64,000 nt of DNA, taken from NCBI GenBank assembly GCA_965200025.1, contig OZ241325.1:844674-908673 (forward strand), given 5' to 3'. The notes under the pieces are model-generated. The model worked only from the letters and a program-made list of their open reading frames with translations, had not been told where the DNA came from and did not search any database. The stretch's first letter is position 1; each line of letters opens with the position of its first letter. This DNA is from Bdellovibrionales bacterium (GTDB lineage: Bacteria > Bdellovibrionota > Bdellovibrionia > Bdellovibrionales > UBA1609). The position numbers and the translations under genes were made by a program. Below are positions 1,617-61,093 of this stretch, one piece after another.

Positions 1617-2555
1617 TTAAGTTTTAGAATCGTTTTTGAGCTTTTTAATTTCCTGCTCCGACAAACCTGTTACTTCAGAAATAAAAGACAAATCTGTCTT
1701 CTTTCTCAACATCTTTAAAATCAGCTCCTGCTGGCATTCCCGGCGGCCTTTTTGAAGCCCCAGTTTTAAGCCTTTGGACCTTTCCTCATCCAATGATATC
1801 TGTAATGGTGGCATAACTCTCTCCTCCTCCTTATCAATAGCCCTTACTTCTATCTCACTCAATATCCTCCAACTAAATCCCGGGCTGTAATGACGCACAT
1901 AATCCACAGCCTTCTTTATCAACCTCATACGATCCTTGACCGACAACCTTCTGCCGATTACAAACAAGGACCTCATAACCCTCTCATTCAAATCCCATAT
2001 ATGACTCATAATATACAGAGCCGGGTAGCTTGTCAAGCTCTTTAACTTTTTTCCATTTTTGCCCAAATCCTGAAGATTCAACAACCGGCACTTAAAATTC
2101 AAGACATTTTTACCAAAACACTTCCTCAAAACCCCACTAAAATCACTCAAATACTCATGGAAGCTTAAAACCCCCCTCCACCTCTTGCTTCCATGGTAGA
2201 CCACCACGGGTATCACCGGTTCTTTTGTCTTGTCGTATATTCCTGTCTGGTAATTCAGTATCTGCCTTAAAAGACCTTCGTCCTGGTAGGATTTATGTTC
2301 CAGCAAAAACAAAATACGGGTGCTTTTTTTTGAACCACGCTTTTTCACAGAAAACAGCAGGTCCATTCTCTTCTCTTTAAACTCTTTGTCCACAAAAGAG
2401 TTAAGCTCCAGTTTTAGAGTCTTGAAGTCAAAGAGTTTAAACTCTAAAGGGGTGAGGATAAGGCGAAAAATATCCAGGCTGTAAGGGAGGTGGGAATAGA
2501 CTTCTTTAAAGAAGATGTCGTGTAGAGAGGTTTTGCGGAGTTTGTTTTGAGGCAT
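1617..2555 (-). CDS. Rpn/YhgA-like recombination-promoting nuclease (PD-(D/E)XK, Transposase_31 family)
   Basis: 312 aa. The core DLLFSV...ILFLLEHKS (D...ExK) and VVYHGSKRW are typical of the Rpn family. The C-terminal helical tail resembles that of the second copy at 37469-38542. Confidence 0.75.
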   Translation of the reverse strand: MPQNKLRKTSLHDIFFKEVYSHLPYSLDIFRLILTPLEFKLFDFKTLKLELNSFVDKEFKEKRMDLLFSVKKRGSKKSTRILFLLEHKSYQDEGLLRQILNYQTGIYDKTKEPVIPVVVYHGSKRWRGVLSFHEYLSDFSGVLRKCFGKNVLNFKCRLLNLQDLGKNGKKLKSLTSYPALYIMSHIWDLNERVMRSLFVIGRRLSVKDRMRLIKKAVDYVRHYSPGFSWRILSEIEVRAIDKEEERVMPPLQISLDEERSKGLKLGLQKGRRECQQELILKMLRKKTDLSFISEVTGLSEQEIKKLKNDSKT

Positions 2556-2932: not shown

Positions 2933-4823
2933 ATGCTAAAAACCCTGTTGTCATTGGCCTTTTTGGTTCTCTCACCCCCACAGTTTAAAGCCTTCACTCA
3001 ACCGGGTTTTTTACATTCAGACTCTCATCCACAACCACCTTGCCGATGGACTGGCTCTATCTGTCCCAATCAGAATCAGGAAGATACAGAACATTTTCTA
3101 AAAAACATCACAAATGTTTTAAGAAAAAACACTCGCTCTGGAGAAGATTTAAGAACCAGCCGTTTTCAAAAACTGTTCAAAGTGATTCATCAGGGTACAG
3201 ACCAGCAGATTTTGTCCCTCATAAACACTCTTAAAAAACACCCTTACTTTGTTACCCCTAAAATTCTTCAGGCTTTTTTTGAAAAAGTGAACAAAATAAA
3301 AAGGAACAATCTTTCTTTTTACTCTCATAAAATAATTCCTGCATTAAAATCTTTTCGAGAGTTCGAAAACTTTCTTCACACCTCTTTGCAAAGCTCAATA
3401 AAAAAACCCCGGCATCAGGAAAGAATCACCTCTCTGGCCAAAAAAGAAAACCTGGCCCGCCTGGGAGTGTTTGAAGATATTTATGGAGACAGATCAAAAG
3501 CCAAAAAACTCAAAAACAAAATCCAGACTGATATTAAGAAAACATTTGAAGTGAGTGATATGAGTAAGAGATTAAACCTCACAAGAGAAACAAATAAACT
3601 GAAAAGTGCAGCTTTGCTGGTGGGGGGGCAGCTTTCAAACAGTTTTATTTTGCCTTTTATAAAGCAATCTCTTGAAGAGACACACAAAATGTCTTTGTCA
3701 TCTGCCAATCGCAGCTTTATAAAAATGAGGAACTCTGCCATACAGGCAGCAGGTGACAGTCTTCTGAAGGCCGGCTACCTGGACAACAAATACAACACTC
3801 TTAAAACCGGGGACCTTACCAAGCTTTCAGATATTATTTTTCATGAAGGCAACTATCCTCAAACGCTCAGACCCTCCTCCGTCCAGCTGGCACGTCAGGT
3901 CGCAGAAAAAATAAAAAACACCAAAGCCAAAAAATACCTCAATGAATCCGGCCTGTTTTATGGTGTTATGCAGGCACCTTCCATTCAAGCTGCCCTGAAA
4001 AGTAATCGGAAAGGTGATTCTTCTGTATCCCGTTACAATACTCAGTTTGCCCCGGATCAGGATTTTAAACCGCGTACAACACTTGTTAAAGAGCGTCTTA
4101 AAAACCTCTTTAAAAAAGAGTCCGATGAGTTTAAGAGGCTTCAAGGCTATAAACTCCTCACTGAAGCAGGGGGCATTTGTCAGTACTTTGGCAAAAGAAG
4201 GTTCAGAAGATAAAAATGTGGATGTGCGGGTGGCCTCCATGTCTGTTGCCTCCACCCTGCCTGTTGATCAGAGTGTATCCATTCTGGAAAAAGGACTTTA
4301 TGATGAGAATAGTTTTGTGCAGGAAGAGGCTTTAAAAGGCCTGGCCAAACTGAACCTGCCTGCTGAGCAGAGTGTGTCCATTTTTCAAAAGGGGCTTTAT
4401 AACAATAACAGTCTTGTGCAGGAAGAGGCTGTAAAAGTCCTGGTCAAAAACAAAAAAAAGGAAATACTTTTCAATATATATGACAGTAATTGGGCTCCAC
4501 AGGCTGCTCACCAGGAAATCCTGAGACAGGCAGGAAATGTAAGGGGAGAGCTGGGTCTTCAGATGCTCCAAAAGGCATTTGAGCAGAGAGGTGTAGAAAG
4601 TGATATTATTGCCGTGGAAAGTGCCTCCAAAATAGGGGGACCTGAGAGTTTAAAATTCCTGATAGAAATGTATGACGCAAGTCAAAGATTATACGAAAAT
4701 GAAAGAAAGAGAAAAGTGAAGGCCGCCATTATTGATGCTATAAACCGTGTGGATGGACCACAACAAGTTAAGTCCCGGCTTTTGAAAAAAGCAATCAGGG
4801 ACAAAATCATCAGAGGGAGGTAA
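2933..4823 (+). pseudogene. secreted HEAT-repeat protein, interrupted by a single frameshift (ORFs 2933-4213 and 4014-4823)
   Basis: Signal peptide MLKTLLSLAFLVLS. The second ORF carries HEAT/PBS-lyase-like repeats (DKNVDVRVAS, DENSFVQEEALKGL, NNNSLVQEEAVKVL). The frames can be joined by losing one base at G5 4169-4173 or A4 4193-4196. Confidence 0.6.
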
Positions 4824-5725: not shown

Positions 5726-6877
5726 TTAAAATATTTTATGCGACCAAAGATCAGTTAAAAAACTTTTCCAGTGACGGGTTTGAATGCCATCAAACCTGGC
5801 TTCCATTTCGTCCTGACTGATGAGAAAAAGCTTTTTAAACCGACTGCACTCTTTAAGCACCCGTAAGGATTTTATATCCCTGTTGGAGGCTTTTCGGGAG
5901 GCCTTTACCTCTAAAGCGGTGTGATCCCCAATAATAAAATCCACTTCCTGTCCGTAACGGGATTGCCAGTAGCATAAAGTGTCGTCTTTTCTGAAGTAAC
6001 TTAAATAAGCTCTTATTTCAGAAGCTATAAAGTGTTCAAAACTTCTTCCATAAAAATCGGAGTGCCTGTTTAACCACTTCACATCACAAAGAACATGAAC
6101 CAAACCAATATCAAAGAAAAAAAACTTTGCTTTGCTCACAGTTTTACGGCGGGGGGTTTTTTTATAAGCTGGCACCATAAAACCCAAAAGCATATCCTGC
6201 AAGACACTGTAATAATCCCTGACAGTGGCAGGGGAAATATTAAAATCGTTTCCCAGTTTGGCAAAATTTAAAATCAGGGTGTTGCTTAAAGCCGCCCCCT
6301 TTAAAAAAGAATGAAAGTTGGAAATGGATCGTGTTAAGGCTTCCGTTTGTGCTTCCAAAATCAGATAATTGGATACATAAGCCTTTAAATCCTCCCAGGG
6401 TTCTTTGCTGAGGTATACATAAGGCAAAGAGCCATAGAGCAGGCGTTTGTCCAGCTGAAACCGATGGGAAAGCTCTTTCCATGAAAGTGCAAAAAGCTCA
6501 GCATTTCTTGCCCTTCCCGCCAACAGATTAATGGGTTTTCGCTTTAACTTTCTGGAGCTTGAACCTGTCAGTAAAAATCGGATATTTTTTTCCTCAATCA
6601 AAAGATGCACCAAATTCAACAGCTCAGGATTTTTTTGAACTTCATCAATAACAACATATTTTTGATGTTTTTTTCTGTTGGCAACCAGAGCCTTCAAATA
6701 AGAAGGTTCTCTTTGCAGCCTGTGGCTTAATTCATTATCCAGTAAATTGATGAACAAAGTTTGCCCCTTCAGCTGTGTTTTAATCAGATGCGTTTTACCG
6801 GTTTGCCTGGGCCCCAGAAGAAAAAAAGACTTTTTGCTTAAAAGAGCGGGAAGGTTTAAAACTCTTGGAATATTCAT
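5726..6877 (-). CDS. AAA+ ATPase with DUF4143-type C-terminal PD-(D/E)XK-like domain, paralog 1
   Basis: Walker A is GPRQTGKT. The C-terminus is EVDFIIGDHTALEVKAS. The start is moved to ATG 6877 to match the N-termini of the two paralogs. TTGACA-N18-TAAAAT (6939-6910) and AGAGGAG lie inside the longer track ORF. Confidence 0.8.
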   Translation of the reverse strand: MNIPRVLNLPALLSKKSFFLLGPRQTGKTHLIKTQLKGQTLFINLLDNELSHRLQREPSYLKALVANRKKHQKYVVIDEVQKNPELLNLVHLLIEEKNIRFLLTGSSSRKLKRKPINLLAGRARNAELFALSWKELSHRFQLDKRLLYGSLPYVYLSKEPWEDLKAYVSNYLILEAQTEALTRSISNFHSFLKGAALSNTLILNFAKLGNDFNISPATVRDYYSVLQDMLLGFMVPAYKKTPRRKTVSKAKFFFFDIGLVHVLCDVKWLNRHSDFYGRSFEHFIASEIRAYLSYFRKDDTLCYWQSRYGQEVDFIIGDHTALEVKASRKASNRDIKSLRVLKECSRFKKLFLISQDEMEARFDGIQTRHWKSFLTDLWSHKIF

Positions 6878-8309: not shown

Positions 8310-8337
8310 CTGGAAAAAAAACGGGGGGGGGTAAAAT
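8310..8337 (+). promoter_or_regulatory. promoter-like element CTGGAA-N16-TAAAAT with G9 tract (8323-8331)
   Basis: Homologous to 2866-2923, including the upstream AAAGTCCAGTTTTTTG block. Confidence 0.35.
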
Positions 8338-12965: not shown

Positions 12966-13452
12966 CTAGGGAGCGGAAGACGGGCAGGAACCACAACCGG
13001 CCTTATCACAGGCTTTCCCCCCACCATAACAGGTGAAGGACTTGGCCGGGCAATTAGAGCGGGAACATCTTTCACCCCCACAAGGGCAAGACACTTTGTC
13101 TTTACAATCAGGCTGTGTCCCACACTTCCCCAAAGAGGTACAAGTGGGACAGAGTGAATGAGAGCAGGCTTCTGTCCCCCCGTAACAAGATACCTTGGCC
13201 GGGCAAGTTTGATTTGTGCATATATCGGGACCACAATCACAAGACTTCTTTTCACAAGGGCATGGTATTTCCCTGAATACACAGTGAGAGTTCCCTGTGA
13301 CTTCACAACAGGTACTTAAAAGTGCACCCGGGCCATAACCCTGTTTACCACTGTAACAACATAGAGAAGGACCGCCATAAATAGCCAGAGCTTCAAAGCT
13401 TAAACTGAAAGTGAAAAATAAAAGAAGTGAGAGGGCAATTCCCCCCCCCCAT
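12966..13452 (-). pseudogene. Cys-rich secreted protein, out of frame at an ATG-proximal G10 tract (phase-variable candidate); absent from the ORF track
   Basis: The minus strand reads AGGA-A8-ATG then the G tract. A stop-free frame of about 158 codons follows the tract and has no ATG/GTG/TTG of its own. It encodes signal peptide IALSLLLLFFTFSLSFEALA plus about 130 residues with about 25 Cys and an internal repeat (CPAKVSCYGGTEAC / CPAKSFTCYGGGKAC). The frame is restored by one fewer G. Confidence 0.65.
13441..13450 (-). repeat. homopolymer C10 (G10 on the coding strand), including the G of the ATG
   Basis: Counted directly in the sequence. Confidence 0.95.
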
Positions 13453-13660
13453 TTTTTTTCCTGGAAACCTAAAAAACAAAGCCTTCATACTTCCCCGTAT
13501 CGGCAGAACCAAAAAAAACTTTAATTCCAGCCACCAGGGGGATTTTGGGATGTTTCAGAGTGAGACACTTTTGGGTAAAACTGCCTAGCTGCTGGTGTGG
13601 CCGGGCAATTATTCCCCGCCCCGGCCAAAGACCCCCAGGATAAGGGTATAAAAATGGAGT

Positions 13661-13903
13661 TTATCTTATAAAACGAATCTTGGTATGTGGAAGTTTTTTT
13701 CTTATGCGGTCTTTGTCCTTTTTTGACAAAGAATGGTCTATATTAAGCCACTTAAGAGAACGAGTGAGTCCTGAAAATACCCCGGCAGGCAAAGCACTTA
13801 AATGGTTATGATTCAAGTCAATCCACCTAAGAGAACCAAGTCCTGAAAAGTCCTCCACTGTCAGCGATTCAATACCCTTATTGTCTATAATTAAAAACTC
13901 CAA
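13661..13903 (-). CDS. short leucine-rich-repeat protein or LRR gene fragment
   Basis: LRR pattern LGSLRWIDLNHNHLSALPAGVFSGL. Only a TTG start is available, directly after an in-frame stop. Confidence 0.35.
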   Translation of the reverse strand: MEFLIIDNKGIESLTVEDFSGLGSLRWIDLNHNHLSALPAGVFSGLTRSLKWLNIDHSLSKKDKDRIRKKLPHTKIRFIR

Positions 13904-25191: not shown

Positions 25192-27633
25192 TTAACTTAA
25201 GGGAGTGTTTAAAGCCTCCTGGGAGGAGGCTGTGGCATCCAAAACTCTGGGAGTGAGAAACAGAAGCAATTCGTTTCTGCTTTCGTCTGAGATTTTTTTT
25301 GTAAAAAACCAGTTGATAATGGGTATGTATTTGAGAAGAGGCAGAGATTCATCCGATTTGGTGACATCACTTTGGTACATACCACCTATGACAATGGTTT
25401 GCCCATTACCCACCAAAACCTTGGTGTTGGCCTCACGGGTGTTGGTGGGCCGGGCCTGAGTGGCATCATGGATAATAGGGCCGGAGAATTGTCTTCGCAT
25501 AGTCACCTGCATAAAGACAGAACCCACCGCCGTAATATTGGGTGTGACATTAAACTCAAACACCACAGGGTTACGGTTGGCCTGTGTGGTGGTACCGGCA
25601 TTGGGGGCTGTAACAGTTGCGATATCAATGCTTTCTGTGGATTGAGTGATCTGAGCCGTTTCTCCATTAAGAACCATAATTCGCGGGGCGGAAATCACCC
25701 GGGCCATTCCCTCATTCTCAGAAATACCCAGTACAGCATCCAGCTGGCCCACAGGGGCAAAACCAATATTGAGGTTGGAGTTTAATGTCCTTCCCCCTGT
25801 AGCCCCACCCTGGCTTCCCCCCTGTTGACTGGCGGGAAAAGCGGTAATATCCCCACCCACACTCAATCCCATGGAATCCTTACCAAAAAGAGGAAAATCA
25901 TTGAGACTCCTTCCCACAAACTCAAGATTTAGCCCAAAGTTTTTTACAAAAGTTTCTCTGGCCTCCACAATTTTGGCCTCAATCATCACCTGCTGGGGGG
26001 ACTTGTCCAGTTTTTCAATCAAAGGGTTTAACCTTTCAATGGCAGAGGCCACATCTGTAACAATTAAAGAGTTGGTCTTTGTGTCCTGACTGACTTTCCC
26101 CCTCCCCTGAGTTAAGAAAGGTCTGATTTGGTTAACAATCTCCCCCACCTTGGCATAAACCACAGGGATAACCTTTACCTCCAAAGGTTCCAGTATTTTT
26201 TTACTCTGAAGCAGCTGCTTCAGTTCATTTTGCCTGGCCTGAAAAGTACTCTTGGTCATAATGCGAAGGACATTGCCCTCCCGCGAGTAGGCCAGGCCCT
26301 TGGTTTTCAACACAGTGACCAAAGCCTGATCCCAGGGAACATTTCTGAGTTTAAGATTTAAGCTTCCCTGTACATTGTCATCCACCACCAGGTTCAGTCC
26401 GGTTTGCTCAGAAATATAATACAGTATTTCCTTGAGATCCATATTCTTAAAATGAAGACTGATGGACCGGCCTGTAAATTTGTATTTGTTCATCAAAAAA
26501 TCCTCATAAGTGGTACTCTGGGGACCAACAAACATGTTTCCCTGTACCCCTCCCCCCGGCTCTGGTTCTGTGTCGTCAGAAAACACATCCCCTTCATCTG
26601 CCAAAAGCAGGTCTTTTTGCCGGGACTTTGGAGAAGTAAAAACCACAAGCCCTCCCCCGGCTTCAGAACTCACAGAGGGCCAGCTCCCCTCCTCTCTCAT
26701 CTGTATAACAACTCTTACTGTTGTGGGGTCTTTTTGATCCGCTTTTAAAAAAGCCATGCGGGTGTTAAACTCCTTCATAACAAAAGGCCATTTTAAACTT
26801 TTGGACAATACCGCATTGGACATTTCTATAATGAATTGTTTTTGTTCTTCGTTTTTTCGAACCTGATACAAAATCTCATCACTTCCTGCGATATGGATTT
26901 TGTCTTCACCGGCCACATAACGAATACTGTTAATGCTCACCTGTGGGCTTTCCTGCAAAACATCCCCCCCTGTGGCCTGAGCCAGGGCAGCATCCACCTC
27001 ATCATCCTCTTCTTCAGGAGACTCTGTTGCCTCTTCACCGGCAACACTGCCTTCTGCCTGTGCAGAGGAAAGCTCCTGGGCAGGAAGCTCACCGGCCTCC
27101 CCTTCTGTTTCCCCCGCCACAGAGGCCACTTCTTTTTGCACACCCTCCTCCTGCCGCACTGCCTCTTCCTCTTCCAGCTCGGCTATCTCCTCCTCTTCAT
27201 CTATAAAGACCTCCTCTGCTGCTTCCCCCTCTTCAGGGTCAAGCTCTGCCAGGGCTGAATCCCCCCCTTCCCCGGCTTCTGCCTGCTGCTCCCCGGGAAC
27301 TGAACCTTCCTGTGTGTTATCAGGAGAGGGAGAAACAGAAGCTTCCTCAAAACTTTCCCCCCTACCTTCTGCATCCTCCAAAAAATCTCTTTCAAAATCC
27401 TCAGAATCCACAAATTCATTTTCCAAATCCGTGCTTTCACCCTCTTCCTCCTCCTGTCTTTCCGCACCAATCACATCGCCCGCATCATCGGCCTCCTCAG
27501 GGAAAGACTCCTCCCCATCCATAAAACTCTCCTCCCCCTCATCTGCATAAAAAGCCTCCTGCCCCGTCTGACAGGACACAAAAAACACAAAACACAAAAA
27601 AACCTGAAAGCCTTTTTTTATACTGTCCTTCAT
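25192..27633 (-). CDS. pilQ: type IV pilus secretin PilQ with acidic low-complexity N-terminal region
   Basis: C-terminal secretin domain (VLVGNGQTIVIGG, LFLTPRV). Start moved to ATG 27633 (GGAGGG RBS, lipobox FFVSC). Confidence 0.85.
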   Translation of the reverse strand: MKDSIKKGFQVFLCFVFFVSCQTGQEAFYADEGEESFMDGEESFPEEADDAGDVIGAERQEEEEGESTDLENEFVDSEDFERDFLEDAEGRGESFEEASVSPSPDNTQEGSVPGEQQAEAGEGGDSALAELDPEEGEAAEEVFIDEEEEIAELEEEEAVRQEEGVQKEVASVAGETEGEAGELPAQELSSAQAEGSVAGEEATESPEEEDDEVDAALAQATGGDVLQESPQVSINSIRYVAGEDKIHIAGSDEILYQVRKNEEQKQFIIEMSNAVLSKSLKWPFVMKEFNTRMAFLKADQKDPTTVRVVIQMREEGSWPSVSSEAGGGLVVFTSPKSRQKDLLLADEGDVFSDDTEPEPGGGVQGNMFVGPQSTTYEDFLMNKYKFTGRSISLHFKNMDLKEILYYISEQTGLNLVVDDNVQGSLNLKLRNVPWDQALVTVLKTKGLAYSREGNVLRIMTKSTFQARQNELKQLLQSKKILEPLEVKVIPVVYAKVGEIVNQIRPFLTQGRGKVSQDTKTNSLIVTDVASAIERLNPLIEKLDKSPQQVMIEAKIVEARETFVKNFGLNLEFVGRSLNDFPLFGKDSMGLSVGGDITAFPASQQGGSQGGATGGRTLNSNLNIGFAPVGQLDAVLGISENEGMARVISAPRIMVLNGETAQITQSTESIDIATVTAPNAGTTTQANRNPVVFEFNVTPNITAVGSVFMQVTMRRQFSGPIIHDATQARPTNTREANTKVLVGNGQTIVIGGMYQSDVTKSDESLPLLKYIPIINWFFTKKISDESRNELLLFLTPRVLDATASSQEALNTPLS

Positions 27634-27831
27634 GGTGAAAAACCCTCCGATGAAATATCCTGTGCCGAACTTCAAATTTTTAAAACCACTAAACCTGCTT
27701 CACTTCCCTTTTTAAATTGTATGATACTTTTTAAAAAAAACACCAATTTATTCTGTAACAAGCTGCGGCTTAAAATGTAACACACTCCGTTAAATACAAA
27801 ATTTTTCTTAACAAATATGTTACGCAATACA

Positions 27832-28818
27832 TTATCTTATCTGGTTTAATCTGTTCAGAGTTACAATAACAGGAACATAAGCCTGTTCCTGTCCTATACG
27901 CTCTTCCAAAATAACCACTTCGTCTTCCCTAATCTGGTAAATAATGCCTTTGTTTTTTCCGATACGATCATTTTTTTGCAACTCATGAATGGTATTGGAG
28001 GGATCTTTAAAAAAAGCTTTTGAAGATCCAAAGCCTGTACCCCAGGTGATTCCCACCAGGTGCATGTCTTTCAGCTCGTACATTTCAGAGGGGGTGGGAA
28101 TGTAAGGGGCTTCCTCCTCCACTGGACTTTCCACGGGAGGTAAAACCTGTTCCACCTGAGTCCTGTGGGATGGAGTGGTGGGGGGGGGTGGCTGCTCACT
28201 GAGAGGGGGTACAAAGGGGTTTCGCTTCTGTGTGGGATCATAACGGTACTCACTGAGAATCTGTTGAATGTAAGCCACCCGGCTTCGGAAATTACTTCTT
28301 ATCCCTTCTGGTGTGTCATCACTGAAATTGTTCTCCCCGTCCTCTTCTGTCACCATTTGATTTTCCTCTTCCGGCATGGGTTCTCTTTCCTGTTTTGGGG
28401 CAGAAGTTTCCCCCTCTGCCTCCGGTAAGTCAGAAAGAATGTCCCCGGTGGGGGAGTGCAAAGAAGCGGGCTGCCTTTCCCCCTGCTCCGGAAAATGAAC
28501 TTCCGGCAGAGTGGGAAAAGCCTCCGGCAAAGAAAGATCCCCTTCCCCGGAAGGCAAATCAGAACCCCCCACAGGGCCTGCCGGTTGTGAAGCCCCTTCA
28601 GGAAGATCTGGTAAGGCAGGGCCTGAAACCTCTTCCCCCCTCCGGACCCCGCTTTCAACAGAGACCTCCTCTTTTTTTGGAACTGTGCTTTCCTCTGCAG
28701 GAAAAGGCTGGCCCCCCTCCTGTGCATGCAGTTCAAAATGCACAAACAACCAGGTGGAAAAAGCCAAAGCCCCCATCCCCACACTCACATATAAAACACT
28801 GTAAAAAAGTGGCTTCAT
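27832..28818 (-). CDS. pilP: PilP-like pilus assembly protein with long Pro/Glu-rich linker
   Basis: Position in the pilMNOPQ order. The C-terminal beta domain (LVGITWG...IGKNKGIIYQIREDEVVILE) resembles PilP. Confidence 0.6.
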   Translation of the reverse strand: MKPLFYSVLYVSVGMGALAFSTWLFVHFELHAQEGGQPFPAEESTVPKKEEVSVESGVRRGEEVSGPALPDLPEGASQPAGPVGGSDLPSGEGDLSLPEAFPTLPEVHFPEQGERQPASLHSPTGDILSDLPEAEGETSAPKQEREPMPEEENQMVTEEDGENNFSDDTPEGIRSNFRSRVAYIQQILSEYRYDPTQKRNPFVPPLSEQPPPPTTPSHRTQVEQVLPPVESPVEEEAPYIPTPSEMYELKDMHLVGITWGTGFGSSKAFFKDPSNTIHELQKNDRIGKNKGIIYQIREDEVVILEERIGQEQAYVPVIVTLNRLNQIR

Positions 28819-28846
28819 TGCTCTATCCTTTTTTTAACCTTTCTCT

Positions 28847-29446
28847 TTAAGGTGTGTTTGGTTTTTCCGCTGTGGCATGCACATAACGATAACCAAAAAC
28901 ATCCATTTTCATCTCCACTTCACCGGTGGAGGAACCCTGACCCCTCCCACTGGTGTGATCCATGGTAAAACTTTCCACAGTTACAATCTCAGGCAGGCCT
29001 GTCAGCTTGGATAAAAACATTAAAATCTGGCCATAAAAACCCTTTATAATAATATCCACTTTAAATTTTTCGTAAAAATCCTTTTTCTCCAAAACCTTTG
29101 TGTTTTGAACAGTTTGAAGGTGTACCCCTGTAATTTTTGAAATACTGGTCAGATAATCCAAAATCACAGAAGAGTTCATTTTGTCAGGTATCAGTGCCAA
29201 AAACTGGTTAAACTCATCACCCATTTCATTTATGGCGTTGTCTGTCTCCTGTAAAGTGACAAGCCGCAACTCCAGCTCTTTAACCTCTGATTGTGTTTTG
29301 GTGTTTGTCGCTTTTATATTATCTATTTCTTTTTGAATGGAAGATCCATTGTCATACTGAAAAAGCCAGTAAAAGCCTGTAAATCCGGAACTTAGCAGTA
29401 TCATCATAACCAAAGGCCACTGTGAAAATATTTTTAACCACATCAT
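28847..29446 (-). CDS. pilO: type IV pilus assembly protein PilO
   Basis: Single N-terminal TM segment, coiled coil, gene order. Confidence 0.65.
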   Translation of the reverse strand: MMWLKIFSQWPLVMMILLSSGFTGFYWLFQYDNGSSIQKEIDNIKATNTKTQSEVKELELRLVTLQETDNAINEMGDEFNQFLALIPDKMNSSVILDYLTSISKITGVHLQTVQNTKVLEKKDFYEKFKVDIIIKGFYGQILMFLSKLTGLPEIVTVESFTMDHTSGRGQGSSTGEVEMKMDVFGYRYVHATAEKPNTP

Positions 29447-29458
29447 TTTTCTTCCCCC

Positions 29459-30088
29459 TTATTTTATCTTTAAAACACTCTCAATAGAAAACTTTTTGTT
29501 GCTCTGTATTCTTTTTTGCCCGGTGGTGACATCATTGGATCGACTGAGAACCACCGTGCTAAAAACAGGAGAGCCCTCCAAATTCTTTATAAAAGACTGT
29601 ATTTCCGTATTATTTAACGCTATTCCATCGATGGTGAATTTACCGTCCCGAAAACTGACTTTCTCCAGCCAGACCTTCTCAGGCAAAACATCCTGAATTT
29701 GATCCAGCCCATTAATGGCAAGAGATCTCACTTTGGCCAAATCCTGCATAATGGTAATCCTCTTCATAAACTCCTCTGACTTGCCAGCCACATAATTAAA
29801 GCCCTTTATCTCTTTTTCTATTTCTGATTTTTTTGACTTTAAACTTTCCCCCTCTGTTTGAACCTGCCGCCTTTTGATTTGAAGCTCTTTTATCTGTTTG
29901 TCCTCCCAAAACATCAATGCCAAAATACCCGACACACAAATCACCAAACGAAGCAAAATGGCCACAATATCTTTTGTGTCCAGGGAAACCTGCCACTCCC
30001 CCACACTTTCCTCTGTGGATATGTCGTCCACAAAAGTGTCTGAGTCGTATTGATCTTTACCGGTTTTTCTTATATCAAAATCACTCAT
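29459..30088 (-). CDS. pilN: type IV pilus assembly protein PilN
   Basis: Single TM segment, coiled coil, Fimbrial_assembly-like C-terminus, gene order. Confidence 0.65.
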   Translation of the reverse strand: MSDFDIRKTGKDQYDSDTFVDDISTEESVGEWQVSLDTKDIVAILLRLVICVSGILALMFWEDKQIKELQIKRRQVQTEGESLKSKKSEIEKEIKGFNYVAGKSEEFMKRITIMQDLAKVRSLAINGLDQIQDVLPEKVWLEKVSFRDGKFTIDGIALNNTEIQSFIKNLEGSPVFSTVVLSRSNDVTTGQKRIQSNKKFSIESVLKIK

Positions 30089-30127
30089 AAAACACTCCTT
30101 GTTTCCGGGGCCTCTTTGGCCCCTGCC

Positions 30128-31165
30128 CTACCTCAAACACATTCCCACCACCGGGGGGAGAAGGTATTTTACAAAATCCCCTGGAGAGGATCCCTCTTTT
30201 TTGAGTTTTTGAAAAGGATCCAAGACCTCTGTGGGAAGCTGAAGGGATGAGCTGATTTCCTCCACCAGATTTTTCACCTGACTTCCCCCACCTGTGACAT
30301 AACATTTATGAATTTTTTGCCCGGGAAACTGGTTATAAAAATACTCAAAACCCACTGCCAAATCATCACAAAAATACTTCACATGCTCCCCCAGAATTTT
30401 ATGCACCTCCTCAGGTGTGCCTTTTTCATCACAAAAACCACTCACTTTTAAAGCTTCCGCCTCTTTTTCATCCACACCCATCTCCTTCATCAGGGCGGTA
30501 CTAAAAAAATCCCCCCCCCCGGCAAGAATCCGGGAAAACACAAGCTCCCCACTGTTAAAAACACAAAACTCAGTGGCACTTTTACCAATATCCAGAACCA
30601 AAATGTTTTTTCCCGCAGGCGGGGATAAAAACTTCATACAGTAAGAAAGGGCAAAACCCCCTATATCAATACACTCACATTTAAAGCCAGAGGTTTTAAT
30701 CAGCTGCTCGTAGTTGAATATCATGTTTTTTCTGGCTGCCACCAGCAAAACATTCACTTTGCTTTTATCCACAGTGGGAAGGCTGTTTATCACCTGATAA
30801 CTGTAATTGACTTCGTCCAGGTCAAAAGGGATGGTCTCTTTGGCCTCCATATACACCAGCTCGTCCATCAGCTTTTTTTCTGACTGGGGGATTTCCACCT
30901 TTTTTATAATGGTGGCCTTGCCACTGACACAAAGACGTATTTTACGCACCGGGCCTTTTGTGTGTTTTTCAACAAATCGCCTTAAAGGCAGCTGCATACG
31001 GGATATGTTGAAAAGCTGCTCCTCCCTGCACTCGTCCGGAATGGGGAGAAAAGCAAAATTCTTCAACACAGGGGTTTTGCGTTCAAATACCAGCTCTGCC
31101 CACTTGATACAGTGATCCCCTATATCCATGGCAAACACCTTCCTTGGTCCAAACAAAGACAACAC
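30128..31165 (-). CDS. pilM: type IV pilus assembly ATPase-fold protein PilM
   Basis: Actin/HSP70-like fold motifs (DIGxxxIK, LVLDIGKSATEF, VTGGGSQV). Contains a G10 coding-strand tract at 30511-30520. Confidence 0.85.
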   Translation of the reverse strand: MLSLFGPRKVFAMDIGDHCIKWAELVFERKTPVLKNFAFLPIPDECREEQLFNISRMQLPLRRFVEKHTKGPVRKIRLCVSGKATIIKKVEIPQSEKKLMDELVYMEAKETIPFDLDEVNYSYQVINSLPTVDKSKVNVLLVAARKNMIFNYEQLIKTSGFKCECIDIGGFALSYCMKFLSPPAGKNILVLDIGKSATEFCVFNSGELVFSRILAGGGDFFSTALMKEMGVDEKEAEALKVSGFCDEKGTPEEVHKILGEHVKYFCDDLAVGFEYFYNQFPGQKIHKCYVTGGGSQVKNLVEEISSSLQLPTEVLDPFQKLKKEGSSPGDFVKYLLPPVVGMCLR

Positions 31166-33852: not shown

Positions 33853-34560
33853 TTAAGTTTTTAAGGCTCTTAGGGCCTGGTGAGTGCTCATCCCGGGGCG
33901 TACCCTTCTGTCATAAAGAATTTGTATCACCTCTTTATCCAGAAGGGAATACTGAACGGGCATAAACTCCGGGTCCTGTTGAAAAATACTGTCTTTATAG
34001 GTATAGGAGTCTTTTCTTAAGCCCATACACTGGGTCAGTTCCTCCCTTAAGATATGAAGCCTGTGCCGGCCCTGAATATCCCTTCGAATCAGTATGGTGG
34101 CAGACTGCACCTCATGGGTTTGCTTGTCGTACTTTAACTCAAACAGGCCATCCTGGGGGTTGGAAGGCTTGTACTGGGGAACAAGAGAACGAAACCGATC
34201 CTGATCCAAAAAATGAATTTTAATATTGGGATTTTTGCTGTCCCATTCAAAAGAAAGACCGGTCAGATGGGAAAGCTCCTGCATAATGTTTTCCACCTCT
34301 GCCCGGTCTTCCGGGGTGAAAGCCCCGTAAATCCCCAAACGAATGCCTTGTGTCCACTTTTTGATCCCGGAAGTGGAGGTCCGGGTGGCAAACTCCTCCT
34401 CCTCCTCAAAACCAATCTCCTGAAAATACTCCACCGCCTGTTCAGAATAAACCCCATATATACTCCGCGGCTGAAAAACCCTCTCATTCAAAAGGGGGGG
34501 GGAGCAGGAAACAAAAATCAGAGCAAAAAAAACAAAGCAGAAAAAGGACATAAGCCACAC
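33853..34560 (-). CDS. lipoprotein, DUF2927-like (putative metallopeptidase-like)
   Basis: Lipobox FVSC. REELTQCMGLRKDS resembles the conserved EExxQxxGLxxD of DUF2927. A C9 coding-strand tract starts directly after the lipobox Cys. Confidence 0.45.
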   Translation of the reverse strand: MWLMSFFCFVFFALIFVSCSPPLLNERVFQPRSIYGVYSEQAVEYFQEIGFEEEEEFATRTSTSGIKKWTQGIRLGIYGAFTPEDRAEVENIMQELSHLTGLSFEWDSKNPNIKIHFLDQDRFRSLVPQYKPSNPQDGLFELKYDKQTHEVQSATILIRRDIQGRHRLHILREELTQCMGLRKDSYTYKDSIFQQDPEFMPVQYSLLDKEVIQILYDRRVRPGMSTHQALRALKT

Positions 34561-42589: not shown

Positions 42590-42836
42590 TAATTATTCCT
42601 TTCCCTTAAAATTATAAAAAACCTTAAACCACACTCTACTCAATCCCTTTGAGGCAAAAAAACCACTTTTTTTGTTCACAAGCTCTGCATTTTTAATTTT
42701 CGGAAAGTTTGTCTGATTTCTTAAATTTTTTATTTTTCTTTGAGTGGTCCCGTTTTCAGCAGCGGGCAGCCACAGGCTGAAAACCAAAAAATTTTTTTAG
42801 AGTTCTTCCCCCTCCGGCCGATACAGGCTAAGTGTT

Positions 42837-49483: not shown

Positions 49484-49891
49484 AATTTCTTTTAGACATG
49501 ATTTTACCTTCTTTTAAAACAAGCATGGATATTATACAATAACATGGTAGTTTGTCAATAGATTTTTTAACAAATCCCCTGAATTCTGGATAATGTAATA
49601 CAATAAATTAGTAATTTCAAGTACTTATAAATATCTGGTGCCTGTTTGTGATCCCCAAAAGGTGGTTACTTTTTCCTAAAGAAGAGAATGTGGTGTCTTT
49701 AGAACCTGCGAATGGCAGAGACTTTTGTGAAGACAATAACAATCTTGTCTGGCAGACCACTTCCCCCCCCCCCTACCTGGGGGGAGTACCGCCCCCGTCT
49801 CAGTCACAGCTCAATCAGTCCAGCTTTGTTGTAATTTTTACACTTCCCAATGAAAAAACCACTGTTTTTCTGCCCTTTTACAAATTAATTC

Positions 49892-49918
49892 TTGACAAAA
49901 AATGGGGGGGGGTAAAAT
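49892..49918 (+). promoter_or_regulatory. promoter-like element TTGACA-N15-TAAAAT with G9 tract (49904-49912)
   Basis: Consensus hexamers read directly. The downstream gene (ATG 49973) has its own AAGGAG RBS. Confidence 0.5.
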
Positions 49919-49972: not shown

Positions 49973-50875
49973 ATGTTTAAAGCTTATGTTATTGTTTTTC
50001 TGATATTCTTTTCTTTTAAAAATAATGCATCACCTTGTGACCAGGTTTTTGATGAAACAGCTCCCTTGAATCAAAAAGTGAAAAAAATTCTTAACAGAGA
50101 CCTCACAAGGGAGGAATTGCAATTTATATCTGAAAGTCCAAAGAAAGAGTTTTTACCTGACAGATTTTATAAAATCCCAGACTTTATAAAAGTTGGCTTT
50201 ACTCTTAATGATCTAAAAAAATTAAGCCTCCATAGTGCTATGCATATCCATACCACCAGTGTAACTGACACAGCAGAAAAATTAAATCATTACATAAAAA
50301 GTGTGGATATAATAAAAAACATTTTGGATCAAAAAGAACCCCTCAATGTAAATCAACACGATGCAATGGTGAATATTCTTACATCAGCATACTACCTGTT
50401 TCACAACTACCCTGATCTATTATCCAAAAAGGATCATGAACACCTGATAGGGGCAGTCACAGAGCTTGTGTTGCACTCATCATCAAAGAAAGATGTCAAA
50501 GAAGTTCTTACTTCCCATTATAACCATTTATATCCAGACTCCCCCCTGCCTCCTAAATTTTTCAAGTACTACAAAAGAAGGAAACAGGCTGAAAAACAAA
50601 TGGGAAAACCTTTAACTTACATACAAAGTCAGAAGATTTATTTCTCTCAACTGCGCAGTTATGATGATGCCATTCAAACATTAAAAGAATATGATTTAAC
50701 TTCGGAGAATATACAAATTTTGGCAAACCACAAAATCTTCTCTAAAAAACTCACTAAACAGATAAATGAGACCTTAGGGCAATCAAAAAGTTTGGTAAAT
50801 CAAGCTGATCACATAGTGGATACACTTGAAGAAGCAGTTTTTGGGAAAAAGAAAAAAATAACCATTCAATATTGA
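49973..50875 (+). CDS. secreted hypothetical protein, paralog family A
   Basis: Has a signal peptide. The N-terminal 60 aa (CDQVFDE...LTREELQFIS) are shared with 50953-51363. Confidence 0.55.
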   Translation: MFKAYVIVFLIFFSFKNNASPCDQVFDETAPLNQKVKKILNRDLTREELQFISESPKKEFLPDRFYKIPDFIKVGFTLNDLKKLSLHSAMHIHTTSVTDTAEKLNHYIKSVDIIKNILDQKEPLNVNQHDAMVNILTSAYYLFHNYPDLLSKKDHEHLIGAVTELVLHSSSKKDVKEVLTSHYNHLYPDSPLPPKFFKYYKRRKQAEKQMGKPLTYIQSQKIYFSQLRSYDDAIQTLKEYDLTSENIQILANHKIFSKKLTKQINETLGQSKSLVNQADHIVDTLEEAVFGKKKKITIQY

Positions 50876-59461: not shown

Positions 59462-61093
59462 TTATTTTTTTAAAGGGGCAGCAGGACTTTGAAGTTTTTT
59501 TAAGCGGCCCTCTGCGGTTTTGAGATCCAAATAAGCTTGGTGGGTGTCCTGACCCAGAAGTTTTAAAATCCCCTTTGTGGCTTTTTGCTGCCGTTGCTTT
59601 CCACTTTCTGTGATATCACCCAGCTTTTGCACCAAAATGGGGACAAATTGTTTGATGTACTGAGTTTTTTTCTCCAGCTCCTCCGCCTTTTTTTCTCTTC
59701 GGATGTGGCGGGCCAGCTTTTGCCCCGTCTGCATAAGCGACTTTCTGATCTCCTCCACCAGCTCCTCACTGCTGTCGATGGTCTCTTTGGAGGCATTTTT
59801 AAACTTGATAAAGGGGGAAGTGACAGAAATGGCAAACACATAAGGCCCTGTGGGAAGGGAGTTTTTTGGCTGCACCAGCCCATAAGCCTTCCAGTTTACC
59901 GATTCCACAGCTTTTGTAATGGCACAGGCGGACTTGTCAAACTGAAGGGGAACACGGTTGGCAAACCTCATCATCTGAATGGGGGGGGCTTCCTGAAGAT
60001 CTTTTTTGTCCTTCAGACGGGCCACAGCGGTTTCCACCACAACAGGCTTGCCATCACATATCACAGGCTTTCTGGTGACCACACTAAAAAAATCCACCTC
60101 CCCTATCCTTTGTATGGACTGGGAAAGAGCCTCCTCCCCCACAGTCAAAACCGAACTGGTGGAGGGGGCCAGCATTTTCACTTTATGAACACTTTGAAAA
60201 AGATGTTTAAACTCCCCTTCAGAAAGAGACCCCACCGATTTTTTTAAAAGAGAGGGTTTTAAACCCTGGGACTGCAACTCTTTTATGGTCTTCATTGTGA
60301 CACGGGAAAATCCTTTTTGTAAAAAAGACGCAAGGGGGGTCTTGCCGTAGAGATGGGCATAAGAGATAAGCTCACCCAGTTTCATGGTGTGAGGGTGAGG
60401 GAGAGTGGCGGGAGGTACCAAAGGCACAGTCTCACTCACTCTTTCAATAAGTCTCGCAGGCTGATCCACCAGCTTGTAGTGAAGGCTTAAGTGGGGGTTC
60501 ACCAAAGCTGTGGCCTCCAGATAGGCCACAAGCCCCCCATCGCCTTTCAGCTGAATACGCCCACTGATACGAAAAATCACTTTTAAGCCATGTTTTTTGT
60601 TCCATGTGGTGTTTTCTTTTTTTCTGAAAAGCCCTTTGTTTTTCTTGATATTCACATCAATAAATGCCCTCACCGGCCCCCTCATGCTTTTGGTTTGGCT
60701 TATCACCTCCACACCTCTGGCATTGGTGAGCTGGGCCCATGTGGTGGCGGCAGAGATACCAATACCCTGCTGGCCCCGCGAACACCTCCCTTTTGCAAAC
60801 TTGGAGGAGGCCAGATATTCCCCAAAAACCCGGGGCAAATCTTCCGTCTTAAGCCCCGGACCATTGTCCTCCACACTCACCTCCACCAGCTCTGTATGAG
60901 GTCCCATTTTCTGCAACCTCTTAATATCCACTTTAATGGCAGGAAGGATACCTGCCTCTTCACAGGCATCCAGGGCATTGTCCATAGCCTCCTTTAAAGT
61001 GGTAAGAACAGCCTTCACCGGAGAGGAAAACCCCACCTGTTGAAGATTTTTGGCAAAATACTCTGCGGTACTGCTGGTGGTGATTTGAGACAT
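59462..61093 (-). CDS. top6B: DNA topoisomerase VI subunit B
   Basis: GHKL ATPase motifs EAMDNALDA, DNGPGL and SRGQQGIGISA, with the length and N-terminal AEYFAKN typical of Top6B. Confidence 0.85.
   Translation of the reverse strand: MSQITTSSTAEYFAKNLQQVGFSSPVKAVLTTLKEAMDNALDACEEAGILPAIKVDIKRLQKMGPHTELVEVSVEDNGPGLKTEDLPRVFGEYLASSKFAKGRCSRGQQGIGISAATTWAQLTNARGVEVISQTKSMRGPVRAFIDVNIKKNKGLFRKKENTTWNKKHGLKVIFRISGRIQLKGDGGLVAYLEATALVNPHLSLHYKLVDQPARLIERVSETVPLVPPATLPHPHTMKLGELISYAHLYGKTPLASFLQKGFSRVTMKTIKELQSQGLKPSLLKKSVGSLSEGEFKHLFQSVHKVKMLAPSTSSVLTVGEEALSQSIQRIGEVDFFSVVTRKPVICDGKPVVVETAVARLKDKKDLQEAPPIQMMRFANRVPLQFDKSACAITKAVESVNWKAYGLVQPKNSLPTGPYVFAISVTSPFIKFKNASKETIDSSEELVEEIRKSLMQTGQKLARHIRREKKAEELEKKTQYIKQFVPILVQKLGDITESGKQRQQKATKGILKLLGQDTHQAYLDLKTAEGRLKKLQSPAAPLKK

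Follow-up and report, generated by a model that had tools for sequence, protein, structure and literature searches.

Layout of the locus

This report concerns a gene on the minus strand of a 64,000-nt stretch of contig OZ241325.1 (positions 844,674 to 908,673; assembly GCA_965200025.1, a Bdellovibrionales bacterium), which as a whole is called the window below. The gene specifies a cysteine-rich protein with a predicted export signal, and one extra G in a run of 10 G's near its 5' end puts it out of frame. An original prediction, made from the letters of the window, had described a hidden gene for a secreted protein that is switched off by this tract in the manner of a contingency locus. The features on which the argument rests, all on the minus strand and located by reading the sequence, are the following.

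13497 to 13523, minus: predicted sigma-28 (FliA)-type promoter, TAAAGTTT-N11-GCCGATAC, ending 8 nt before ATG1
13486 to 13488, minus: ATG1, an upstream in-frame ATG 12 codons before ATG2, which gives the n-region MKALFFRFPGKK
13450 to 13462, minus: AGGA (13462-13459), a run of eight A's (13459-13452) and ATG2 (13452-13450)
13441 to 13450, minus: the G10 homopolymer and site of the frameshift, encoding Gly14 to Gly16 of the precursor
13383 to 13439, minus: h- and c-regions of the predicted signal peptide (IALSLLLFFTFSLSF-EALA) in the +1 frame, with a predicted signal peptidase I site between ALA and IY
13393 to 13395, minus: TGA that ends the out-of-frame product (31 amino acids from ATG1, 19 from ATG2)
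12969 to 13382, minus: mature Cys-rich protein of 138 amino acids with 25 Cys, made up of a variable N-terminal segment and two repeated Cys modules
12966 to 12968, minus: TAG stop and point of truncation relative to the paralog P0001, which has a Cys there (AP-stop-GL against APCGL)

The reading frame breaks at the G tract

On the minus strand the tract stands in the context CCAGG-AAAAAAAA-TG-GGGGGGGGG-AATTGCC, which in composition is CCAGG-A8-TG-G9-AATTGCC, and the run is 10 G's long when the G of ATG2 is included, in agreement with the original prediction. That account had also placed an AGGA, eight A's, and the ATG in succession. Both the AGGA and the A8 run are present, but the spacing differs: the eight A's include the last A of the AGGA and the A of the ATG, so that the actual layout is AGGA-N6-ATG, with a Shine-Dalgarno-like AGGA 6 nt before ATG2. 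ATG1 and ATG2 share one frame, and reading from ATG2 yields MGGGNCPLTSFIFHFQFKL followed by the TGA at 13395-13393, an early stop that had been foreseen correctly. Given one G too many, translation from either ATG would therefore halt after 19 to 31 codons and leave no protein.

In the +1 frame no stop interrupts the stretch between 13484 and the TAG at 12968-12966, which amounts to 172 codons in total, 157 of them past the tract, and when the DNA around it was shuffled 2000 times an open stretch of this length turned up only twice. A stop-free frame of about 158 codons lacking any ATG, GTG, or TTG had been claimed. Its length holds; as to start codons, the first 117 codons are indeed free of them, but an in-frame TTG stands at codon 118 of the open stretch and a GTG at codon 131, which accounts for the 55-amino-acid open reading frame (ORF) listed at 12966-13133. 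Past the tract, the +1 frame encodes IALSLLLFFTFSLSFEALA and then the 138-residue mature part, in which Cys makes up 18% of the residues. With G9, as had been proposed, the frame is restored and a 173-amino-acid precursor results that is collinear with P0001, whereas with G10 a stop follows after 19 or 31 codons. A change of the tract by one unit thus switches between a full-length and a truncated product, and the homopolymer, which at 10 nt exceeds the length of about 8 nt or more that is typical of contingency loci, lies in the 5' coding region at precursor codons 14 to 16.

A genuine gene with an intact paralog

Compared with about 5.8 billion proteins, the G9-corrected product gave a single match, P0001 (284 amino acids, E = 2e-70, 74 to 78% identical, covering the whole query). 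When 1.84 billion cluster representatives were scanned with HMMER, only P0001 itself and P0002 came up. P0002 matches just the C-terminal ~70 residues of P0001 (69% identity) and, as annotated, has no signal peptide. The intact homolog that such a search was hoped to reveal therefore exists, albeit as a paralog within the same genome. An origin of P0001 as an ortholog from another species was considered and ruled out: P0001, P0002, P0003, and P0123 are each on record for one contig only, of 1,898,558 bp, and the elongation factor G (EF-G) and the DUF2927 lipoprotein encoded in the window are 100% identical to P0003 and P0123, respectively. Because it lies on the same contig as these window proteins, P0001 is an intact paralog rather than an ortholog, and as a member of the same genome it carries no information on conservation across strains. 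The members of the family, namely, the intact P0001, the tail-sharing P0002, and the window copy, all reside in this genome.

The correspondence between the window copy and P0001 is close on both sides of the tract. P0001 has the N terminus MRALFFRILRKKMGGGIALSLL (in longer form, MRALFFRILRKKMGGGIALSLLFFFTFSLSFEALAIYG), shares the leader KKMGGGIALSLL with the window copy in frame, and at the protein level reads MGGGI, in frame, at the position of the tract. It is this in-frame GGG of the paralog from which we take G9 to be the ON length of the gene. A tblastn search with P0001 follows frame -2 from 13488 (MKALFFRFPGKKMGGG) and passes into frame -3 precisely where the G run lies, and every Cys in the conserved modules of P0001 is kept in the window copy. 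The synonymous codon usage of the gene scores 0.03, against -0.20 ± 0.07 for random synonymous choice, and is like that of the other orphan genes of the window (0.02 to 0.05). The existence of a homolog, the switch of frame at the tract, and codon usage above random all bear out the coding nature of the corrected frame, and we regard it as certain that a real gene is present here, one of an orphan family specific to this genome.

Other routes to relatives were unproductive. Peptide-pattern scans of genome and metagenome contigs found no relative, P0001, P0002, P0006, and two proteins of the window gave no match when looked up as exact sequences, and a degenerate DNA pattern for CPCEKKSCDCGPDIC had no match in metagenomes. 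The organism itself is divergent within Bdellovibrionota, with GltX at most 49% and EF-G about 83% identical to those of Bdellovibrionales metagenome-assembled genomes (MAGs).

The encoded protein

Read from ATG1, the leader appears on inspection to be a canonical Sec signal, with an n-region of net charge +4, a 15-residue core with a mean Kyte-Doolittle hydropathy of 2.23, and a cleavage site between ALA and I, with Ala at both -3 and -1. Its h- and c-regions are identical to those of P0001 at 17 of 19 positions. The original prediction of a signal peptide followed by about 130 residues with about 25 Cys is borne out by the leader and by a mature part of 138 amino acids with 25 Cys; in its detail it was inexact, as the core has LLL after the Ser and not LLLL. 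The internal duplication that it had pointed out is real: CDCGPDICTNQTCPAK-VSCYGGTEAC aligns to CPCGGERCSRSNCPAKSFTCYGGGKAC with a score of 103, against a mean of 47 and a maximum of 76 in 500 shuffles. One peptide expected from the G9-corrected product is IYGGPSLCCYSGK.

None of the three proteins (window product, P0001, and P0002) has a sequence match in Pfam, NCBIfam, or the PDB even at E = 10. An AlphaFold2 model built from a two-sequence alignment reached a predicted local distance difference test score (pLDDT) of 41 and was unusable. From its leader and composition, the product would be an exported Cys-rich protein, and the family as a whole probably comprises disulfide-rich, Sec-exported repeat proteins that are confined to this genome.

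Probable start codon and promoter

The original prediction had the start codon directly followed by the homopolymer. The tract does lie near the start, but ATG1, 12 codons upstream, is probably the true start: P0001 starts MRALFFRILRKKMGGG, the tblastn alignment in the window begins at 13488, and initiation at ATG2 would give a signal peptide without positive charge. With ATG1 as the probable start, the tract would fall inside the signal-peptide coding region rather than straight after the start codon.

Just upstream, the sequence at 13497-13523 agrees with the Escherichia coli sigma-28 consensus TAAAGTTT-N11-GCCGATAA at 15 of 16 positions, and the pattern TAAA-N14-16-GCCGATA occurs at this site alone in the window, against 0.04 expected. 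In Bdellovibrio bacteriovorus, FliA-type sites drive attack-phase genes, including those for cell-surface proteins, and make up two-thirds of attack-phase promoters (PMC3627812). The gene is thus probably transcribed from a sigma-28 promoter, with a predicted transcription start at about 13491 to 13489. With the promoter ending 8 nt before ATG1, the mRNA would be nearly leaderless for that start codon. A second sigma-28-like site at 42798, with three mismatches and upstream of a decarboxylase gene, was treated as a chance occurrence, and in the loci of relatives such sites were no more frequent than chance would have it and gave no information. Scanning the window for Rfam families and for tRNAs gave no match.

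The junction of A8 and G10 invites the question of whether the frame is corrected during expression, with G10 as the functional state and either +1 ribosomal slippage on GGG-GGG-GGG-A or RNA-polymerase slippage on A8/G10 supplying the intact protein. Two homopolymers do adjoin at the shift site, and deletion of one A from A8 also restores the frame for ATG1, so that an mRNA with A7 in place of A8, or G9 in place of G10, would give MKALFFRFPGKK(W/M)GGGIALS... The 5' mRNA, however, shows no unusual structure (z = -0.02) that might stimulate a shift, no slow codon follows the tract, and the paralog P0001 needs no such device. Moreover, A8 is shorter than the runs known to give efficient transcriptional slippage. 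We consider programmed recoding highly improbable. A terminator-like match on the tract was dismissed because of the same lack of structure.

G/C tracts in the window and the reliability of G10

Runs of at least 9 G's or C's number 11 in the 64 kb of the window. A third-order Markov model of the window predicts 3.9 of them, and in distant Bdellovibrionota loci only 3 occur over 547 kb. This density (~0.17 per kb) is about 30 times that of the distant relatives. The tracts are enriched between genes (5 of 11, where 13% of the DNA is intergenic; P = 0.009), in positions ahead of genes, and the lengths of G/C runs show a bump at 9 nt (8 tracts, against 7 at 8 nt). Taken together, this distribution fits a contingency-locus genome.

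Four of the five intergenic tracts abut a -10-like hexamer (G9-TAAAAT, G9-TAACAT, or G9-TAAAAC). These elements, and the tract in the lipoprotein gene discussed below, are as follows.

2909 to 2923, plus: G9 and TAACAT
8323 to 8337, plus: G9 and TAAAAT
49904 to 49918, plus: G9 and TAAAAT
2668 to 2682, minus: G9 and TAAAAC
34494 to 34502, minus: C9 in the DUF2927 lipoprotein gene 33853-34560, in frame and encoding S-P-P-L right after the lipobox Cys

The first three elements also have an A-run and a -35-like hexamer (TTGAAA, CTGGAA, or TTGACA), with a spacer of 15 nt at G9 that would become 17 nt at G11, and upstream of those at 2909 and 8323 some 60 nt, with a hairpin among them, are common to both. 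The genes 2933-4213 and 49973-50875, downstream of G9 tracts, are orphans with signal-peptide-like N termini. The layout brings to mind a promoter-spacer tract of the porA type, but without exception the copies have a G9. The tract of the Cys-rich gene had been assigned to the same element family. A-runs with G9 tracts do exist at 2909-2917, 8323-8331, and 49904-49912, but flanks shared with the gene were not found, and the assignment was rejected: an alignment shows only an A8-T-G9 core in common, the tract is followed by GAATTG and not by a -10 box, and the corresponding stretch is coding in the paralog. As the G9 tracts are promoter-like and noncoding, they provide no evidence for G9 as the ON length of the gene.

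Orthologs of the DUF2927 lipoprotein are Pro-rich at the position of the tract and were dropped as a test of tract variation, since at 49% identity or less they are too distant. In a relative with 83% EF-G identity (contig L082, 2.03 Mb, positions 6771-6788), C10 followed by TCA and T8 covers codons 13 to 19 of a 982-amino-acid orphan gene next to fusA, the C10 itself covering codons 13 to 16; C10-TCA-T8 is the reverse complement of A8-TGA-G10 and resembles the motif of the Cys-rich gene. A Transposase_31/Rpn gene lies near this C10, as one does in the window (1617-2555). A literature search on homopolymers in Bdellovibrionota found nothing relevant.

The tract length could also be a mistake of assembly or base calling, in which case the true tract would be G9 and the gene an ordinary intact one for a secreted protein. 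Among the indel errors that remain in long-read assemblies, those in long G/C homopolymers are the most frequent, and a source in the form of one 1.9-Mb contig suggests that long reads were used. In addition, P0001, which has the same leader, is in frame, and all other features of the gene are intact. On the other hand, 15 of the 16 coding homopolymers of at least 9 nt in the window (9 to 11 nt long, including the G10 in pilM with a full-length PilM_2 match, an A11, a T10, and the T10 in bioD) are in frame, so that the assembly appears reliable at such tracts. With 0 of the 15 others off frame, the 95% upper bound on such errors is about 18%. A true G10 is likelier than a miscall, and we hold the error to be improbable.

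Further observations concern other tracts and frames of the window. A G10 in pilM (30511-30520, minus strand, codon 216) and a C9 in a PilP-domain gene (28180-28188, codon 211) are both in frame; the two genes belong to a type IV pilus assembly cluster running from pilM to the secretin gene (25192-31165) and are potential frameshift hotspots. The longest G tract of the window, G11 (49763-49773, minus strand), lies in a stretch of about 490 bp without a convincing ORF, between a DUF2188 gene and the orphan gene starting at 49973. The ORFs 2933-4213 and 4014-4823, both on the plus strand, overlap by 200 nt, and a HEAT-repeat frame is recognizable right past a G5 near 4165. A frameshift may have split a single gene into these two, or the second gene may begin at an internal GTG. 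The gene 59462-61093 (minus strand) combines a topoisomerase VI B-subunit transducer domain with a GHKL ATPase domain, an arrangement seldom seen in bacteria.

Neighborhood of the gene

The gene lies between two divergently oriented genes for DUF4143 AAA-ATPase paralogs that are 41% identical to each other. Upstream of it, an 80-amino-acid ORF with a TTG start (13661-13903, minus strand) encodes two leucine-rich repeats (LRRs; LRR_8, E = 3e-10) and appears to be a piece of some larger LRR protein; taken with the HEAT-repeat ORF 4014-4823, it hints at a eukaryote-associated lifestyle. Also upstream, in the region 13540-13640 (minus strand), the 14 nt at 13598-13611 are an exact copy of the NCPAK-coding DNA of the Cys-rich gene (TAATTGCCCGGCCA) and lie within a GC-rich hairpin. 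One frame of this region reads PHQQLGSFTQKCL, with a faint likeness to the C-terminal tail of the family, PTQQLATPAECL, which was not significant in BLAST; the region may be the remnant of an upstream tandem paralog.

Phase variation or decay

The reading that we tentatively favor, at a little under an even chance, is that the window copy is a slipped-strand, phase-OFF copy of a gene whose paralog P0001 is ON. The copy would be one member of a Sec-exported, disulfide-rich family, driven by a sigma-28 (FliA) promoter of the kind that in Bdellovibrio marks the attack or free-swimming stage, with a G run encoding Gly-Gly-Gly in its signal-peptide coding region. A G run of 10 nt is prone to slipped-strand mispairing in replication, which makes a reversible change in length (G10 to G9, or G10 to G12) the most likely mechanism. 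Such changes would toggle the gene ON and OFF in a subpopulation, and the locus would read OFF here while the in-frame paralog P0001 stays intact elsewhere in the genome. In favor of this reading, the gene keeps its putative promoter, two in-frame ATGs, the signal peptide, and 157 open codons, and the pattern of G/C tracts described above agrees with it.

Several points weigh against it. The last 111 residues of P0001, among them the domain that it has in common with P0002, are absent from the window copy. Its surroundings, with the LRR fragment 170 bp upstream and the two flanking DUF4143 ATPase genes, resemble a decaying region. Its codon usage score of 0.03 is below the core-gene expectation of 0.16 ± 0.05 (P = 0.005). 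The intergenic G tracts (four G9 and one G11) are nearly uniform, unlike freely drifting tracts, which speaks for a motif under constraint. The 64-kb window contains no fliA or flagellar gene and no information on mismatch repair. Finally, that the tract length varies in practice and that the shortened product is functional are both things we infer.

Much of this is what a pseudogene would look like, that is, a decaying partial duplicate of P0001 that lost its C-terminal domain by deletion or rearrangement and then, or also, suffered a 1-nt slip in the G tract, with an unselected OFF state in an eroding locus. On this view the tract would just be the likeliest place for an inactivating mutation to strike. 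A TAG stands where P0001 has a Cys, and neither residues 176 to 284 of P0001 nor P0002 has a match anywhere in the window, so that the window copy lacks the acidic linker, the third Cys module, and the Pro-rich tail. The frame is therefore both disrupted at the tract and shorn of conserved parts. Weak codon usage and the gene remnant nearby fit the same picture, and loss would be tolerable because an intact paralog exists. The region is also not conserved: in a relative from SRR17504026 (contig L081, 2.5 kb, ending before the locus), whose fusA is 91% identical at the nucleotide level, the DNA upstream of that gene is unrelated. However, the frame is otherwise undamaged over its 157 open codons, with every Cys of the conserved modules kept, and the expression signals are not eroded, given that the promoter, both ATGs, the Shine-Dalgarno sequence, and the signal peptide are intact. 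A short product that ends after two complete Cys modules could, moreover, still function. The truncation relative to the paralogs and the adjoining gene remnant make pseudogenization a serious rival, which we judge quite possible, if on the doubtful side. Since a G10 frameshift is reversible by nature, the pseudogene and the phase-OFF copy differ only in whether selection acts on the locus. The contingency-locus reading of the original prediction is thus supported in part: the real gene, the loss of frame at G10 and its recovery at G9, the density of G/C tracts, and their presence near the 5' ends of other genes for exported proteins speak for it, and the truncation of the copy beside a gene remnant speaks against it.

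A wider form of the phase-OFF reading would have a deep-branching Bdellovibrionota lineage with a small genome (1.9 Mb) operate a genome-wide contingency system of G9 to G11 tracts. These would lie in signal-peptide coding regions (those of the Cys-rich family and of the DUF2927 lipoprotein, for example), in promoter spacers next to the -10 box of genes for orphan secreted proteins, and within type IV pilus assembly genes, and the attack-stage surface would be varied stochastically. We rate this as rather unlikely. To our knowledge, no earlier phase-variation system has been reported from predatory or Bdellovibrio-like bacteria, so that this one would be the first.

If the favored reading is correct, homopolymer phase variation, known mainly from host-adapted pathogens, would extend to Bdellovibrionota, the switch would be tied to the sigma-28 attack-stage program, and orphan disulfide-rich exported proteins would emerge as factors that vary at the surface or in interactions with prey or host. 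For annotation, it matters that ORF callers miss the gene and that further switches of this kind may be concealed by the many other long G tracts at gene starts and promoters of the genome. A locus that is no more than a decaying duplicate or a slip in base calling would be routine.

Comparison with known systems

The mechanism is a classical one, and the novelty lies in the lineage and in the orphan Cys-rich family. The promoter has its closest counterpart in B. bacteriovorus, where attack-phase promoters read TTAAG-N16-CCGATA and the FliA regulon includes cell-surface and uncharacterized secreted proteins (PMC3627812). The putative promoter described here, TAAAG-N15-CCGATA, is of the same type, although the organism is only distantly related, as its GltX and EF-G identities indicate. 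We know of no description of phase variation in the Bdellovibrio FliA regulon.

A looser analogy is offered by chlamydiae, which have the Cys-rich envelope proteins OmcA and OmcB and, in Chlamydia pneumoniae, poly-G-bearing pmp genes. These systems would share with the present one exported, Cys-dense proteins that are presumed to be disulfide cross-linked and poly-G frameshifts in surface paralogs of a host-associated bacterium, but there is no sequence similarity to the window product, which is without a match in Pfam, NCBIfam, or the PDB at E = 10.

Campylobacter jejuni and Helicobacter pylori carry poly-G/C contingency genes, including flagellum-associated ones, with about 30 tracts per genome in C. 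jejuni. As in these species, G/C tracts of about 9 to 10 nt are overrepresented here and cluster at the 5' ends of genes and in functions related to the surface or to secretion, with a putative association with the sigma-28 regulon. In contrast to them, the density in the window (~0.17 per kb) is far above that of some 30 tracts per genome, and many tracts occupy spacers that resemble promoters or fall within pilus-assembly genes of a housekeeping-like kind. A general survey treats homopolymeric tracts close to the 5' ends of genes (PMC2831843).

The present locus differs from the Neisseria systems in that its protein family is unrelated, the window copy is shortened relative to its paralogs, the host is a member of Bdellovibrionota and not a mucosal pathogen, and variation of the tract is a proposal here. 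In Neisseria, where variation has been documented experimentally, pilC and opa have repeat tracts in the signal-peptide coding region, paralogous families, conserved leaders, and mixed frame states within one genome. Like pilC, with its poly-G tract, and opa, the gene described here combines a putatively hypermutable tract in the region encoding the leader peptide, and frame states that differ between copies in one genome, with paralogs that have conserved leaders.

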